Source of the DNA: a virus
Virus record (IMG/VR): IMGVR_UViG_3300041409_000599
Coordinates: 1 to 64,000 of that record
Length of the DNA: 64,000 nt
Reading direction: 5' to 3' (one strand)
Shown piece by piece: positions 671-5,761 of the stretch. The position numbers and the translations under genes were made by a program. Within the stretch, counting starts at the first letter, position 1, and each line of letters starts with the position of its first letter. The notes under the pieces are model-generated. The model saw nothing but the letters and a program-made list of their open reading frames with translations. It was not told the origin of the DNA and did no database searches.

Positions 671-856
671 TTACTTCAGGTTTGCCAGATACCAGATGAG
701 CAGAAACGGCAGCGCAAACAGAAAGCTGGCAATAGCGATCTTCCAGACCAGAACGTACATCTGCATAATCGTGATCTGTTGAACAGCGCTGGCCGCTGTC
801 GGCGGCGCGCCGGCAATCGGTTTCTCGTCCCACAGCTTTGATCCCTGAGCTGACAT
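671..856 (-). CDS. Small single-TM membrane protein
   Basis: SD AAGGAG upstream; hydrophobic C-terminal segment. Confidence 0.55.
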   Translation of the reverse strand: MSAQGSKLWDEKPIAGAPPTAASAVQQITIMQMYVLVWKIAIASFLFALPFLLIWYLANLK

Positions 857-859
857 GGG

Positions 860-1249
860 TTACTCCTTACTGGCGTCTGTAGCCACAAACATTTCATCCG
901 GCCATTCCGCCCGGCCTATCAGTCCATTCAATTCTCTAATCCTCAACTTGCGCGCCGTGTAGTAAGAGAATGACCTTTTCACGTCGCCTTCAGGACCGCC
1001 TTTTGATCCGCTGGCCGGCATGGCCAGGCCGCCGCTCTTCAGCAGCTTCACCAACTCGTCAGGATGCATGGCTGCGCCGCGCTCATCCAGCAGCGTGCAG
1101 ACGCCATCAATGGTATCGATCCCATGAAAGCGGAAGAGTGACATCAGATCGGCTTCAAGCTGGCGCGTGTGACGTTCCACGATCTCTCGGACCTGCGCCG
1201 ATACTTCCGGTGGTAGTTCTCGTTTTGGCATGGCTCCCGCGGCGCTCAC
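860..1249 (-). CDS. Putative winged-HTH (HARE-HTH-like) DNA-binding protein
   Basis: LLDERGAAMHPDELVKLLKSGG...LIGRAEW pattern; GTGA overlap with the upstream gene. Confidence 0.45.
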   Translation of the reverse strand: MSAAGAMPKRELPPEVSAQVREIVERHTRQLEADLMSLFRFHGIDTIDGVCTLLDERGAAMHPDELVKLLKSGGLAMPASGSKGGPEGDVKRSFSYYTARKLRIRELNGLIGRAEWPDEMFVATDASKE

Positions 1250-1671
1250 ATTACTTCCTCAACAAAGCCAAACAGCGGCCGGTTATGGCCATCGATGAAG
1301 AGCATGTGTTGGATGTGACCAACGATGCTAGCATATTGACGCTTCAGGTTCTCCACCTGAATGTGAAAATCTGTCGGCGACGAAGCGCTCCTGGCTGCTT
1401 TCACCGTCAGCAGCGCGTCCACGGCCTCGCGGCTGGCCCGCATCACGGTGTCATATTTCTCGCCGTCAGGTGGCAGCACTTCGGCCTGGCCTCCGGCAAA
1501 ACGGATCGTGACTTCAAGGTTGTGCTGGGCCAATTTCAGCGCTTGCTCCCACGCCGGCGTCCGCTCGGACGATGTGGGAAAGTCTATGTGGCGATAAGCT
1601 CCGAGCAGCCGAATCGGTGTATCGGGGTCTATAAGAGGATCTGTGCGAAGTGGTGTTTCAGGCGTCATCAT
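1246..1671 (-). CDS. Hypothetical protein
   Basis: 141-aa ORF coupled to the downstream gene. Confidence 0.55.
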   Translation of the reverse strand: MMTPETPLRTDPLIDPDTPIRLLGAYRHIDFPTSSERTPAWEQALKLAQHNLEVTIRFAGGQAEVLPPDGEKYDTVMRASREAVDALLTVKAARSASSPTDFHIQVENLKRQYASIVGHIQHMLFIDGHNRPLFGFVEEVM

Positions 1672-1719
1672 GCTTTCTTCCCGTAAACTGAATTCCTTCC
1701 TACCTTTTACCTGGTGCCG

Positions 1720-2484
1720 TTATTCGGTGAACTGCGCCGCCGCGGCCAGTGTCTGGCGATGCGCGCCCACCATCTCTGCTACCTGCTCTGATGTGGCCTT
1801 CTCTGGAACTGTCTCCCTGGCCCACAAGGTGCAGCCCCACCACAACAGTGAAACAAAATAGGCCAGCATTCCCGTCCGTCGAACGAGCGCCGCGGTTTCC
1901 CGCGAAGTGATACCGATCATGAACATGGTTGCCCCGTTCACGCTCAAAGATATGAGTAAGCCAATAGCGATCCTTTGCGGCCATGGCCTCCAGCCAATTC
2001 CCAGATGCCGCGAATAAATGATCAGAATGACCAGTGAGATCAGTAGCGCCGAAACCAGCGCGGCCTCCAGACCGCCCATGACCACGACGTATTTCTCCGG
2101 ACCCAGCGGCCGTAACTCAATGGCCAGAAGCGCGCATGAACTGATGGCGGCGGCCAGCCATGCTCCAATGTTTCGTGGGACCCACGCCGGCACGCGCGCC
2201 CAGCGTTTTCCAAAGGTCTTGCGATAAAGTTCGCCGATCGCCACCGCCATTAGAACGCACTGCACCACTGAGATTGCGTAATAAGACCAAAAGTATGTCC
2301 ATGGTCGTCCGGAAGGTATGGCCATCAGATACCAGGTGGTCAATGCGGAGAAATAGATAAACAAGCAGAATGCGGGATATCGCTTCCCGGCGTCGCGCCT
2401 CAATAGCATGATAGAAAGCGCTGACTGGATTGCCGCGATGGCAAGCCATAGGAAGACATCGAAGCTAAATAGGTAAGCTAGCAT
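1720..2484 (-). CDS. 7-TM integral membrane protein (candidate peptide receptor or processing protein)
   Basis: Seven hydrophobic ~20-aa segments and a short soluble C-tail. Confidence 0.75.
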   Translation of the reverse strand: MLAYLFSFDVFLWLAIAAIQSALSIMLLRRDAGKRYPAFCLFIYFSALTTWYLMAIPSGRPWTYFWSYYAISVVQCVLMAVAIGELYRKTFGKRWARVPAWVPRNIGAWLAAAISSCALLAIELRPLGPEKYVVVMGGLEAALVSALLISLVILIIYSRHLGIGWRPWPQRIAIGLLISLSVNGATMFMIGITSRETAALVRRTGMLAYFVSLLWWGCTLWARETVPEKATSEQVAEMVGAHRQTLAAAAQFTE

Positions 2485-2531
2485 TGGGCTGCACCTCGGA
2501 AGGGGGTTGCTGAGAGGGGATGCAGCCCAAT
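2483..2531 (-). promoter_or_regulatory. Hairpin occluding the SD and start codon of the 7-TM gene
   Basis: Perfect 11-bp inverted repeat ATTGGGCTGCA/TGCAGCCCAAT including the AT of the ATG; inner CCTC can pair with SD GAGG. Confidence 0.6.
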
Positions 2532-2566
2532 TTGTAAACTATATCGGTTCGCGATGCAAGAACAGT

Positions 2567-2737
2567 TTAATTGACCGGGCACATCGGCATGCCAGGGCAC
2601 GGTGGTGGGTTGCCGCAGCAAAACATCACCGCTGCGTGCGCGGGCTGCGCCTTCGCTAGGGCGATGGCTTTTTCGCTTATTGAAATCGAAGTCAGTAAGG
2701 CAAAGGCAACGATAAGCGCACGTTCTACGTATTTCAT
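2567..2737 (-). CDS. Small secreted Cys/Pro-rich peptide precursor (56 aa)
   Basis: SD GGAG; signal-like N-terminus MKYVERALIVAFALLTSISI; C-terminus CCGNPPPCPGMPMCPVN. Confidence 0.7.
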   Translation of the reverse strand: MKYVERALIVAFALLTSISISEKAIALAKAQPAHAAVMFCCGNPPPCPGMPMCPVN

Positions 2738-3004
2738 TGTGCTCTCCATGCCGCTGATTGCGGCCATGGTTCGAATATAGTTTAAGTTGTGGCATTGGTT
2801 GCGCCTTTATTTTTAGGTAGCGATGTTCTAGTCCTATGTTGAGAATTGGTCAAATAAATAAGGGTTGGCTTAATATTGTGTTGCTTAACAATGTGTGGTG
2901 CCATTTCGGAATCTACCGCCATCCGCTTTACAAAGTTAACCGCTATTGTTCCATGTGCATGATCATGAACGCGCCGTGATGCCGCGATGGTCCATGGTTG
3001 TAGC

Positions 3005-3283
3005 ATGGCAACGCGTAAGCCCGGACCATCGAAGCCCGGACCATCGAAGCCCGGACCATCGAAGATCATAGGCAAGAACATCAGGGTGCGGCTGGGCGTC
3101 CGGGTGCAGGCATTGCGCCGGCGCCGAGGCTGGGGCCAGCCCGATCTCGCTGCCGAAAGCGGCCTCGACCGCTCATACATTTCCAAAATCGAAAATGGAC
3201 GCATCGAGATCGGCCTCACCACGCTGGAAGTCCTGGCCAACAGCTTCGGGATGACGGTGTCACAATTCATGCGCGGTGTGTGA
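3005..3283 (+). CDS. XRE-family HTH regulator (controller-protein-like)
   Basis: LGVRVQALRRRRGWGQPDLAAESGLDRSYISKIENG...TLEVLANSFG. Confidence 0.9.
   Translation: MATRKPGPSKPGPSKPGPSKIIGKNIRVRLGVRVQALRRRRGWGQPDLAAESGLDRSYISKIENGRIEIGLTTLEVLANSFGMTVSQFMRGV
3017..3064 (+). repeat. 15-bp perfect tandem repeat x3 (KPGPS x3)
   Basis: AAGCCCGGACCATCG three times, in frame. Confidence 0.95.
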
Positions 3284-3473
3284 CCCTCTCTGCGGATGGC
3301 GGTTCCATCTTCACGCGCACATGCTTGCTACCTTCCCATATGCGCCCTTTTCGATCTCGAACGTGAACCACAACCTCTACCGTTGCGCAATTGCAGTCAA
3401 CGCCATATACGATCATCGATTCCTCGATCACGTTATCGGCTTAGTTCCATCCCAGCCATCTCTTCAGATAATT

Positions 3474-3963: not shown

Positions 3964-4013
3964 CAGCCCTGAAAAGGCTGGCGTCGGCGGTTCGATTCCG
4001 TCCCTGGCCACCA
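3964..4013 (+). other. att core: 3' half of tRNA-Phe(GAA), attP-like
   Basis: CAGCC-CTGAAAA-GGCTG anticodon arm, GGCGG-TTCGATT-CCGTC T-arm, CCTGGCCACCA end; no 5' acceptor strand or D-arm upstream; integrase adjacent. Confidence 0.9.
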
Positions 4014-4047
4014 TATTTGAATAACTTACAGACATCCATTTTCCGTT

Positions 4048-4070: not shown

Positions 4071-5258
4071 TCACTGCACTGTCGTGGACCGCGTGAACGA
4101 ATCCAGTTTACGAACGGCATCGCGCTGATGCTCATCCGATGTTTGTTGGTAAATATCAATCGTCGTACTGGCCCGCGCATGCCGCATCTGCCCTTGCGCG
4201 TCCCGCACCGGTATTCCGGCTCTTTTCATCCACGTAGCAAATGACGTTCTAAAACAACGCCAGTTCACGAAGGGGATCCCTAGCTTCCGCGCCGCCGGCT
4301 TGATGTGCCTGCTCAGGATATTGTTGTCCCGCATGACAACGCCTTTTCTTACCGACTGGAACACCAGATCGTCTGGTTCTGACCTCTTGACCAGTTTGAA
4401 AGTCTGGTATCCGCCGCGACCGCCGCCGATTACAACACTCAACTCCTTCAACCGATGGATCCGCTGAATGACGTGAGGGCTCACCGCCAGGACCGTGTTG
4501 CGGGCATCGGTCTTTGGCGCGCCCCAGTCGCCACGACAGCATTTCTCGTCGATTACTATGGCGTCCTCCAGAATATCCTTCCAGCGCAATGCGGCAATTT
4601 CGCTCGGAAGTAAGCCCGTGTTGACCGCAACAAAAATCATGGTTGCGTAAGGCTCAGCTACGAGTTCAAGAACTGCTGCCGCCTGCTCCGGCGTGATATT
4701 GGGCTTTGGTGCTCTCCCAACTTTCGCCCGCGGCAAAACTACATTTCCCGCAGGATTGACTGAGACGTAAGACTGCTCTACGGCCAACTGCATCACGGTC
4801 GAAAAGCAGCTAAGCATCTTGCTCATAGAGGCATGGGCAAGATTTTTGTCTTTGAGGCCGATGAAGTATTTCTGTACTTCAATGTCGGTAGGGCGCGCCA
4901 GATCGAAGAGTGCTATATCCCCAAACGCCGGAAGCAGATGGTTTTCGAGGATACCTTCATATCGGTCAGCGTGAGCCTTCGACTGCACCGGCAGAAATAT
5001 TTTCTTGTAAACATCATCGACAAAATGCCTGAATGTGACTGCAACGCCCGGGCTGCGCGGTTGCAGGTTAAGCGGGTCCATCACGGCTGCGGCCCGCTGC
5101 TGAGCTTCCCTGAAGCCGATATCGTTTACGGCGCCCAGGACGTGCGGCACGCGTTTACGGTTCCAGTCTCCATTCTCAAACACGTCTTTCCACACCAGAA
5201 TGCGCCACTGATTGCCATGACGCTTCGGTTTGGGGTTTTGATACCGCCTCCTGGCCAT
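4071..5258 (-). CDS. int: Tyrosine integrase (first catalytic Arg appears replaced by Leu)
   Basis: N-terminal SAM-like domain; TGLLPSEI, PKT, WRCFRTS and MRHARASTTIDIY boxes; likely start MARRRYQ. Confidence 0.92.
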   Translation of the reverse strand: MARRRYQNPKPKRHGNQWRILVWKDVFENGDWNRKRVPHVLGAVNDIGFREAQQRAAAVMDPLNLQPRSPGVAVTFRHFVDDVYKKIFLPVQSKAHADRYEGILENHLLPAFGDIALFDLARPTDIEVQKYFIGLKDKNLAHASMSKMLSCFSTVMQLAVEQSYVSVNPAGNVVLPRAKVGRAPKPNITPEQAAAVLELVAEPYATMIFVAVNTGLLPSEIAALRWKDILEDAIVIDEKCCRGDWGAPKTDARNTVLAVSPHVIQRIHRLKELSVVIGGGRGGYQTFKLVKRSEPDDLVFQSVRKGVVMRDNNILSRHIKPAARKLGIPFVNWRCFRTSFATWMKRAGIPVRDAQGQMRHARASTTIDIYQQTSDEHQRDAVRKLDSFTRSTTVQ

Positions 5259-5475
5259 TGCGTCAATCTCCGATCGCAACGACTCGCAGGGCTTCGTCCC
5301 CGCCACCCTACCACCGTTATATATGTGGAAATCCATGTAATTGAGCCACTTACCAGTCAACTAGCAGCCAACCGTCGCACCAGTTGACCTCGAAACACTA
5401 TTCCAACAGTCACCAGTTGTCAACACAGTTGTTACTGTCTAAGTAATTATTTCTGAGTTTTCCACAGAATAATGC

Positions 5476-5503
5476 TTTACAACCGTAACAGTTGATGTAT
5501 AGT
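5476..5503 (+). promoter_or_regulatory. Sigma70-like early promoter
   Basis: TTTACA-N16-TATAGT just upstream of ATG 5516; CAGTTG repeated at 5381, 5414, 5426 and 5489 (operator-like). Confidence 0.5.
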
Positions 5504-5515
5504 TCAAGGCGAACT

Positions 5516-5761
5516 ATGCCGCAAACAGATTCGCAACTCGAAAAGTTGACCCCGGCTGAAGCCCGGTGTCTCGCCGCTTTTAAGGCCGCGCGGCGCCGGA
5601 TGAGTCCCATACCGCCTTCCGTGCAGGACGTGGCGGACGAGATGGGAGTGACCAAGAAAACAGCGTCGGTGACCCTGCAGCAGCTTCAGGAAAAGGGAAG
5701 AGTCACCCGCGACGGCAGAAAGTCCCGGACCCTGCGCCTGGCCAGCCGGAGGACAGCATGA
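5516..5761 (+). CDS. LexA-type wHTH DNA-binding protein without peptidase domain (Cro/Xis-like position)
   Basis: LTPAE...PPSVQDVADEMGV...LQEKGRVTRDGRKSRTLRL. Confidence 0.8.
   Translation: MPQTDSQLEKLTPAEARCLAAFKAARRRMSPIPPSVQDVADEMGVTKKTASVTLQQLQEKGRVTRDGRKSRTLRLASRRTA

Follow-up and report, generated by a model that had tools for sequence, protein, structure and literature searches.

The 64,000-nt window analysed here (positions 1 to 64,000 of the IMG/VR virus record IMGVR_UViG_3300041409_000599) carries a cassette in which a gene for a small exported peptide, rich in Cys and Pro, is followed on the same strand by a gene for a seven-transmembrane (7-TM) protein. The locus belongs, as a copy carried by a mobile element, to a large and undescribed two-gene module of Acidobacteria. 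The peptide–7-TM pair corresponds to no database family, and literature searches found no description of such a module. The pair could represent a peptide and its membrane receptor, translationally coupled and carried as mobile-element cargo, a reading to which we give somewhat less than an even chance. What is new at this locus is a mobile-element subtype with a four-Cys peptide, two soluble partners and a regulator of the XRE family; the recurrence of this subtype at the attR end of two elements that are integrated in tandem at tRNA-Phe; and a conserved hairpin, with its statistics, that sequesters the Shine-Dalgarno (SD) sequence of the 7-TM gene.

A signal-peptide ORF adjoins the 7-TM gene across a large family

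The features that define the pair are listed below. L001 is a locus in a Terriglobales metagenome-assembled genome (MAG), and L004 is a paralogous cassette in the prophage adjacent to the window cassette.

2567-2767, minus strand: exported Cys/Pro peptide precursor; the longest open reading frame (ORF) is 66 aa, the likely product 56 aa from the ATG at 2737
2484-2530, minus strand: SD-sequestering RNA hairpin between the peptide and 7-TM genes, found by folding; arms kept in L001, design kept in L004
1720-2484, minus strand: 7-TM membrane protein of 254 aa, from the ORF list and an AlphaFold2 model; member of a large undescribed family

The window 7-TM protein has 12 close homologues with 61-78% identity, and a profile that includes four distant paralogues from its own genome matches 2,780 representative clusters at E <= 0.001, of which 1,342 are matched at E <= 1e-10. 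In a sample of 401 genomes taken across the phylum, the family is present in 28 of the 33 genomes of the host's own family, mostly in multiple copies. Beyond that family it occurs in two other families of the class and in one of 241 genomes from 67 of the remaining families of the phylum; in the same sample none was found in the 27 other phylum families listed. Most members are chromosomal, and the peptide–7-TM pair is not phage-specific. Scans of viral contigs with A1 and with the prophage-internal 7-TM protein gave no relative, one scan of metagenome contigs gave none either, and tblastn against 50,697 phage records returned no match.

The initial annotation had proposed that a small Pro/Cys ORF with a signal peptide should stand beside 7-TM homologues, and such an ORF was clearly found. 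All six 7-TM paralogues of the own genome are directly preceded, on the same strand, by a Pro-rich signal-peptide ORF of 39-60 aa, and the C-termini of these small ORFs mostly contain Cys. Under a strict automatic rule, with 1,323 genes of the own genome as controls, an upstream peptide ORF was detected at 19 of 36 7-TM genes (35 loci) versus 9 of the 1,323 control genes. The commonest peptide type in other genomes has a C-x6-C loop at its C-terminal end, as in MPIPMCAPDDPNACGM, VPMCPPNDPNACGW and PVPLCLPGSGDYCGMQ, and its gene often occurs in two tandem copies. The spacing of the Cys pair is fixed across genera, as in the first of these. In two genomes, at L018:276-1888 and L021:1492-3147, two 7-TM paralogues lie in tandem with no recognisable peptide ORF upstream.

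The exported peptide

The ATG at 2737, which gives the 56-aa product, has a GGAG sequence 6 nt upstream. The peptide starts with a basic N-terminus and a hydrophobic core, which are followed by a cleavage region rich in Ala and by the C-terminus CCGNPPPCPGMPMCPVN; a Sec signal, a Cys motif and a Pro-rich C-terminus are all present in the sequence MKYVERALIVAFALL...CCGNPPPCPGMPMCPVN. In this subtype the mature part would be the conserved, Pro-rich C-terminus with four Cys residues. Two orthologues were found, one in L001 (L001:7751-7912, C-terminus CCADPPACPGLPMCPIN) and one in a JGI metagenome (P0167, C-terminus CCGDPPPCPGMPMCPVN). Comparison of the three sequences shows conservation of the last 17 aa, moderate conservation of the signal peptide and a variable linker. 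In pro-peptides of the Phr/AimP type, too, a variable linker joins the signal peptide to a conserved extreme C-terminus. In the nucleotide alignment of the 17 C-terminal codons, synonymous changes are about as many as non-synonymous ones, and this substitution pattern is that of purifying selection; the small ORF is a real gene. No Pfam family matches the peptide at E <= 0.1, and this includes DUF2946 (PF11162).

The 7-TM protein and its predicted fold

The AlphaFold2 model of the 7-TM protein, computed from the paralogue alignment, contains seven transmembrane (TM) helices and a C-terminal helix, with a predicted local distance difference test score (pLDDT) of 79 and a predicted TM-score (pTM) of 0.77. 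Lys and Arg residues are concentrated in loops 1, 3 and 5 and in the tail, and the N-terminus is therefore placed outside and the C-terminus inside. The protein belongs to no Pfam, NCBIfam, PHROG or PADLOC family. It had been described at the outset as lacking an enzymatic domain, and indeed no known enzyme or transporter family was matched. Residues R30, E85, P99, G175 and W216 are invariant across the paralogues; E85 sits in a GELY (GELYRK) motif at the cytoplasmic end of TM3. The paralogue alignment shows no conserved catalytic set of His, Cys, Ser or Asp and no conserved metal ligands. Over 137 representatives, conservation is 0.41 on the cytoplasm-facing side versus 0.26 on the periplasm-facing side.

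Foldseek searches with the model gave only weak matches to microbial rhodopsins as well as to G-protein-coupled receptors (GPCRs), with E >= 0.13 and a TM-score of ~0.5. Foldseek returned nothing from BFVD at E <= 0.001. A microbial rhodopsin was considered and rejected, because TM7 (residues 195-221) has no Lys for retinal. The top VIA-align matches are solved GPCRs and LYCHOS/GPR155, with Z 11-13 and a root-mean-square deviation of 4-5 Å over ~200 residues at 5-10% identity; helical bundles reach Z ~13-14 in this method through arrangement alone. The protein shares with class A/B GPCRs, and with yeast Ste2 and its alpha-factor ligand, the seven helices, the N-out/C-in orientation, an acidic residue at the cytoplasmic end of TM3 and a helix after TM7. 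With identity this low and Z within the chance range of helical bundles, however, the likeness is one of arrangement and not of demonstrated kinship. Bacteria are not known to have G proteins.

The structural check originally suggested, a prediction of the peptide–7-TM complex, gave a pass that is weak. The mature peptide scored 0.39 against 0.00 for the best of three controls, where passes at or below 0.60 are wrong more often than they are right; the mark itself is reached by 58 of 80 solved complexes and by 2 of 110 mismatched pairs. The runs share at least 19% of contacts, and the partner pLDDT is at least 31. It is noted that one family representative of 398 aa, P0044, has the 7-TM region fused to a C-terminal cytoplasmic domain of ~150 aa, which has no similarity by phmmer to the TM-anchored proteins encoded by the third genes of chromosomal modules.

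A conserved hairpin at the 7-TM ribosome-binding site

The peptide stop and the 7-TM start are separated by 82 nt, in which the hairpin UUGGGCUGCAUCCCCUC...GAGGUGCAGCCCAAUG is formed. Its 5' arm is UUGGGCUGCAUCCCCUC; its 3' arm, GAGGUGCAGCCCAA, contains the SD sequence GAGG (2497-2494) and abuts the 7-TM start codon. L001 has identical arms with a different loop and different flanks. The hairpin design recurs in the diverged paralogue L004 (GGGCUGCCACCUC...GAGGUACAGCCCUGUG), SD-sequestering hairpins of other sequence are present in further family members such as L027, L028, L029 and L032, and in L006 the anti-SD lies within the PPL codons of the peptide gene itself. The median energy needed to open the region from SD to start is 12.8 kcal/mol for 23 7-TM genes, compared with 6.9 kcal/mol for 400 control genes. 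For 11 of the 23 the value is at or above the 95th percentile of the controls, and the Mann-Whitney p value of 9e-7 overstates independence because the 7-TM genes are related. On the folds and these statistics, the conserved hairpin holds down translation of the 7-TM gene by sequestering its SD.

This control element brings in the main rival explanation, absent from the initial annotation, in which the small ORF is not a signal molecule but a cis-acting exported leader peptide of the CutF/SecM/MifM type. Slowed translation and export at the Pro-rich C-terminus would open the hairpin that shields the 7-TM ribosome-binding site, and the cue would be periplasmic metal or redox state sensed via the Cys residues, or else secretion or EF-P status. 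CutF carries a Sec signal that is cleavable, together with a Cys motif, a C-terminus rich in Pro (PPP), a stem-loop between the genes that shields the SD and an intergenic distance of <100 nt (PMC9973294; bioRxiv 10.1101/2025.02.05.636593). The window locus matches this list in full, as it also resembles SecM, MifM and VemP. The conserved hairpin, the unusually structured 7-TM start regions, the placement of the anti-SD in L006 and the fact that Pro-richness is steadier than Cys across the family all agree with a leader. However, the peptides are only 42-60 aa long, about half the length of CutF of Rhodobacter capsulatus (~115 aa), with the Cys motif in the last 17 residues. Given the length of the ribosomal tunnel, the motif would still be inside it at termination, so that it could not leave the ribosome during stalling and, unlike in CutF, the periplasm would not be sensed co-translationally. 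The 5' arm of the hairpin begins 31-37 nt past the peptide stop in the window (37 nt), L001 and L004, and 50-64 nt past it in L027 and L028; in most copies it starts 30-60 nt downstream, which would put it beyond the reach of a terminating ribosome. There is no Pfam match to DUF2946, the family of CutF, and the downstream gene encodes an orphan 7-TM protein rather than a metal enzyme. The conserved spacing of the Cys pair and the tandem peptide genes suit a functional mature peptide better than an arrest sequence. On balance, we consider a leader peptide unlikely.

Soluble partners and the divergent regulator

From 2767 to 671 on the minus strand there are five tightly spaced ORFs that form an operon, encoding in order the peptide, the 7-TM protein and proteins of 141, 129 and 61 aa. 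The ORFs named in the initial annotation are all present in the ORF list of the window. The operon had been described as ending with the 129-aa protein; the four genes stand, and it extends further to the conserved 61-aa TM ORF. None of the five proteins matches Pfam, NCBIfam, PHROGs or PADLOC. The remaining features of the cassette are as follows.

1246-1671, minus strand: 141-aa soluble protein, fold unassigned; ORF with 77% identity to the L001 copy
860-1249, minus strand: 129-aa soluble protein (123 aa from Met-7); ORF, helical, weakly winged-helix/HARE-HTH-like
671-856, minus strand: 61-aa single-TM protein, last conserved gene of the operon; phmmer E 2.8e-7 against L001:9612-9818
2768-2986, between the divergent genes: promoter/spacer of 219 bp, 42.5% GC, with nucleotide blocks conserved in L001
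2987-3283, plus strand: divergent XRE-family helix-turn-helix (HTH) regulator of 98 aa; Pfam HTH_31 3e-12, HTH_3 3.6e-11
3267-3431, minus strand: 54-aa ORF, syntenic with L001:7023-7232; phmmer E 2e-17

The 141-aa protein is the most conserved of the cassette. A sequence search of the PDB was empty, Pfam gave only an SCP2 match below the cut-off, the Atlas model has low pLDDT, and hhalign found no profile similarity to the TM-anchored third-gene family. The start of the 129-aa ORF overlaps the stop of the 141-aa ORF by 4 nt. The AlphaFold2 model of the 129-aa protein is helical (pLDDT 71), and a motif G..WP[DE][DE].F is conserved at the C-terminus. It had been called a winged HTH. Pfam and Foldseek searches gave nothing; its neighbours in language-model (ESM) features are clusters with 16-36% HARE-HTH at scores of 0.88, which serve as a lead only; and the top VIA-align rows are all winged-helix proteins (Fur/Zur, histone H1/H5, MecI and the N-terminus of RNA polymerase delta) at Z <= 5.0. 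On these models the winged-helix likeness is a weak lead. Close homologues of the 129-aa protein were found on contigs of 10,488, 6,896 and 4,283 nt, sizes that match those of the contigs carrying 7-TM homologues. The 129-aa family is rare, being present in 5 of 301 genomes of the host's family. Chromosomal modules usually have a TM-anchored protein of 170-205 aa in place of the soluble partners.

The XRE protein scores 47.1 bits against HTH_31 (cut-off 27) and 43.4 bits against HTH_3 (cut-off 23), and its orthologue in L001 (L001:7216-7488) occupies the same divergent position. The gene accompanies only this subtype. The spacer between the XRE and peptide genes was correctly described as AT-rich, having 42.5% GC against 57% for the window. 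A simple promoter scan of it gave no sigma-70 consensus and a search for inverted repeats found nothing, and we therefore propose no operator. The XRE gene opens with three exact tandem 15-nt units (CCCGGACCATCGAAG, window 3020-3064) that encode PGPSK three times; this repeat is absent from the L001 orthologue.

The cassette belongs to an element next to the integrase-bearing prophage

Two further features define the surroundings of the cassette.

3964-4018, plus strand: att core of 55 nt, the 3' half of tRNA-Phe(GAA); an identical second copy lies ~69.8 kb to the right
4071-5360, minus strand: tyrosine integrase of the adjacent ~70-kb prophage, outside the element of the cassette; Pfam Phage_integrase 3.4e-11

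ARAGORN and Rfam detected no tRNA in the window, and neither of the two 55-nt cores is an intact tRNA. The site had been taken for attP. Its core, a tRNA-Phe 3' half repeated at the distance given above, marks it instead as an integrated junction. Between the cores there are the integrase, RecT, an SbcC-like protein and TerL/terminase; to the right of the second core there are ordinary chromosomal genes. The interval between the cores has the properties of a prophage, namely a tyrosine integrase, direct repeats of the tRNA 3' half at both ends and phage genes. The cassette is consequently outside this prophage, on the far side of the left core. Its reported distance of about 700 bp from att and the integrase agrees with the 681 bp measured to the core, while the integrase itself is on the opposite side of the core from the cassette.

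L001 contains the whole cassette: the XRE regulator, the peptide, the 7-TM protein, proteins of 139 and 129 aa and the small TM protein. The ORF beyond the XRE gene (54 aa in the window, 69 aa in L001) is likewise kept. The same core, over 52 nt, is found in L001 at the same position relative to the cassette, and the element-side flank is homologous. The cassette is therefore located 0.7-1.7 kb within the attR end of elements that make up a second, related family integrating at tRNA-Phe. The core at 3964-4018 serves both as the attR of the cassette-bearing element and as the attL of the prophage, with the two elements in tandem. Directly after the cassette, L001 (9815-12534) encodes an ATP-dependent DNA ligase, a protein with DUF3606 and a fusion of a DNA methylase with an Mrr-like endonuclease domain.

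The prophage has its own paralogous four-gene cassette just inside the right core, outside the window (G000:C197:70298-72174; L004; L038:8299-10175). It encodes a 60-aa peptide ending in DCCIPPCPPLCPGNPPTALQK, a 252-aa 7-TM protein and two further proteins of 127 and 143 aa, the latter ending in ASWPNEKFKI; a gene for an MmcB-like nuclease precedes it, and there is no divergent regulator. The 7-TM proteins of the window and prophage cassettes are only ~25% identical, yet the order of the four genes is the same: the peptide, the 7-TM protein, a protein of ~130-140 aa and one of ~130-143 aa ending in WP[DN]E.F. The third proteins (141 and 127 aa) have no detectable similarity. A circular permutation of one phage was considered and rejected on account of this low identity, and the cassettes are therefore assigned to two different elements. 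In the chromosomal flank to the right of the second core, at G000:C197:~74247-74357 on the minus strand (L045), a 36-codon fragment (hmmsearch E 1.2e-10) corresponds to the C-terminal end of the window-type 129-aa protein and is probably the relic of an earlier element at the tRNA-Phe site. With two cassettes and this remnant in one place, the site appears to have been visited repeatedly by cassette-bearing elements. This suggests that the cassettes are accessory cargo, each element bringing a private pair of peptide and partner.

Other genes in these surroundings were noted. An 89-aa LexA/MarR-like winged-helix protein is encoded beside the prophage integrase (window 5492-5761, plus strand); it may be the repressor of the prophage or a regulator of its excision. 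A 202-aa AAA+ fragment (L038:7313-7921, minus strand; G000:C197:~69312-69920), which has a lid of the BCS1 type and weak PADLOC matches to IetA/TRIP13, is encoded two genes downstream of the cassette inside the prophage. Positions 1-413 of the window are absent from contig C197, which measures 76,136 nt where the protein database gives a contig of 80,460 nt; an ORF with a HIRAN domain at 60-431 spans this boundary.

Interpretation of the peptide–7-TM pair

A peptide with a membrane partner remains the best reading of the pair, because a peptide ORF stands beside the 7-TM gene far more often than beside control genes and no known family of enzymes or transporters includes the 7-TM protein. It is the best-supported reading in view of the adjacency, the pro-peptide layout, the fixed Cys spacing, the tandem copies and the several diverged pairs per genome, together with a non-catalytic 7-TM protein with a conserved cytoplasmic face, its dedicated cytoplasmic partners and the weak pass in complex prediction. 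In the mechanism we propose, the small pro-peptide would be exported by Sec, with its conserved part at the extreme C-terminus: a Pro-rich knot with four Cys residues in the window subtype and a C-x6-C loop in most chromosomal copies. Set free into the periplasm or outside the cell, the peptide would bind to the co-encoded 7-TM protein from the periplasmic side. Through its conserved cytoplasmic face, the 7-TM protein may then relay the signal to cytoplasmic partners, which here would be the 141-aa protein and the weakly winged-helix-like 129-aa protein, and in chromosomal copies a TM-anchored protein of ~180 aa. The hairpin would couple 7-TM synthesis to peptide synthesis and keep the 7-TM protein at the lower level.

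Several observations weigh against a peptide and its receptor. Certain peptide types are Pro-rich without any Cys, and at least eight 7-TM loci have no recognisable peptide. The 7-TM protein has no output domain, its likeness to GPCRs and rhodopsins is one of shared topology only, since the Z values are within the chance range, and the pass of its complex with the peptide is weak. The higher conservation of its cytoplasmic side is soft evidence because the outward loops of membrane proteins generally vary more. Distant relatives of the 129-aa protein keep the same C-terminal motif with no 7-TM protein alongside, and the soluble partners may therefore be a separate module. The SD hairpin and the PPP-containing, Pro-rich C-terminus fit a cis-acting leader peptide as well.

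It is also conceivable, with a probability that we put as low as that of the leader, that the peptide is a secreted toxin, such as a Sec-dependent bacteriocin, and the 7-TM protein its immunity or exclusion protein, forming a cassette for competition or superinfection exclusion on mobile elements. An exported Cys peptide followed by a polytopic membrane protein, tandem peptide genes, several diverged pairs per genome and the att-proximal accessory position on two mobile elements would be expected of such a cassette, and translational coupling would ensure immunity whenever the peptide is made. However, a module in 28 of the 33 sampled genomes of the family is broad for bacteriocins, which are usually patchy. 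The mature peptides are short and Pro-rich and have no amphipathic or hydrophobic character, the 7-TM protein is conserved on its cytoplasmic and not on its periplasmic face, and no PADLOC or PHROG entry was matched.

An envelope or metal-homeostasis module, in which a Cys/Met/Pro peptide in the periplasm would serve a 7-TM transporter, sensor or anchor as a small subunit that binds metal (such as Cu(I)) or is redox-active, rather than as a diffusible signal, is the least probable of the alternatives: Met and Cys do cluster in conserved C-termini such as VMFCCGNPPPCPGMPMCPVN and MPIPMCAPDDPNACGM, and exported Cys peptides such as bufferins and CutF (for CutF, PMC9973294) act in copper biology, but Met is not invariant, several paralogues have neither Cys nor Met, the loci examined contain no MNIO/DUF692, multicopper oxidase, P-type ATPase or other metal gene, and the 7-TM protein lacks conserved metal-ligand residues. 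The bufferins (BufA with MNIO enzymes) resemble the peptides described here in being small Sec-exported Cys precursors with several paralogous copies in soil bacteria. They differ in that no Pfam match to MNIO (DUF692) or DUF2063 was found in the cassette or the paralogous loci, nor any match to DUF2282 or BUF_6/12Cys, and in that the peptides here are much shorter.

As a peptide–receptor pair, the module may be compared with known peptide systems. Arbitrium (AimP/AimR/AimX) and the Rap-Phr systems of Bacillus phages and integrative and conjugative elements likewise have a Sec-signal pro-peptide with its conserved mature part at the C-terminal end, a peptide gene beside that of its presumed partner, diverged private pairs on prophages or integrative elements and, as in the window subtype, an XRE-type regulator nearby. 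In contrast to these, no cassette protein here matches tetratricopeptide repeat (TPR) or RRNPP families in Pfam or NCBIfam, the 7-TM partner belongs to no known family, the peptide would be Cys-bridged, and the family is mostly chromosomal in a diderm host. The Agr (AgrD/AgrB/AgrC/AgrA) and ComX/ComP systems are similar in that the peptide gene adjoins that of a polytopic membrane protein in one operon and the mature form is constrained. Compared with Agr, no cassette protein has a Pfam match to AgrB, HisKA/HATPase or Response_reg, and the peptide carries a classical Sec signal instead of an amphipathic leader.

The initial annotation had viewed the cassette as a phage communication system governing lysis-lysogeny or excision. 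That view finds no support at this locus: the cassette is outside the integrase-bearing prophage, the family is mostly chromosomal, and the XRE gene is confined to one subtype. A wider conjecture, which we consider improbable, is that each integrative element or prophage of soil Acidobacteria has its own private, diverged pair of an exported disulfide peptide and a kinase-less, GPCR-shaped 7-TM receptor, accompanied by a small partner of the winged-helix type and, in one subtype, by an XRE switch. The pair would let lysogens sense kin elements through an arbitrium-like channel in diderms, built from entirely different parts and recruited from a peptide-sensing family of the host chromosome.

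If the pair is indeed a peptide and its receptor, bacterial peptide sensing would here operate on a stand-alone seven-helix protein, with neither a histidine kinase nor a receptor for imported peptides, and it would be abundant in a major family of soil bacteria and repeatedly captured by mobile elements. This would represent a new class of cell-cell or element-element communication in diderms and would give a function to an unannotated protein family of thousands of members. Even if the small ORF were a leader, a toxin with its immunity protein or a metal-binding subunit, the locus would reveal a large, previously unannotated family of small genes together with a conserved translational control element.

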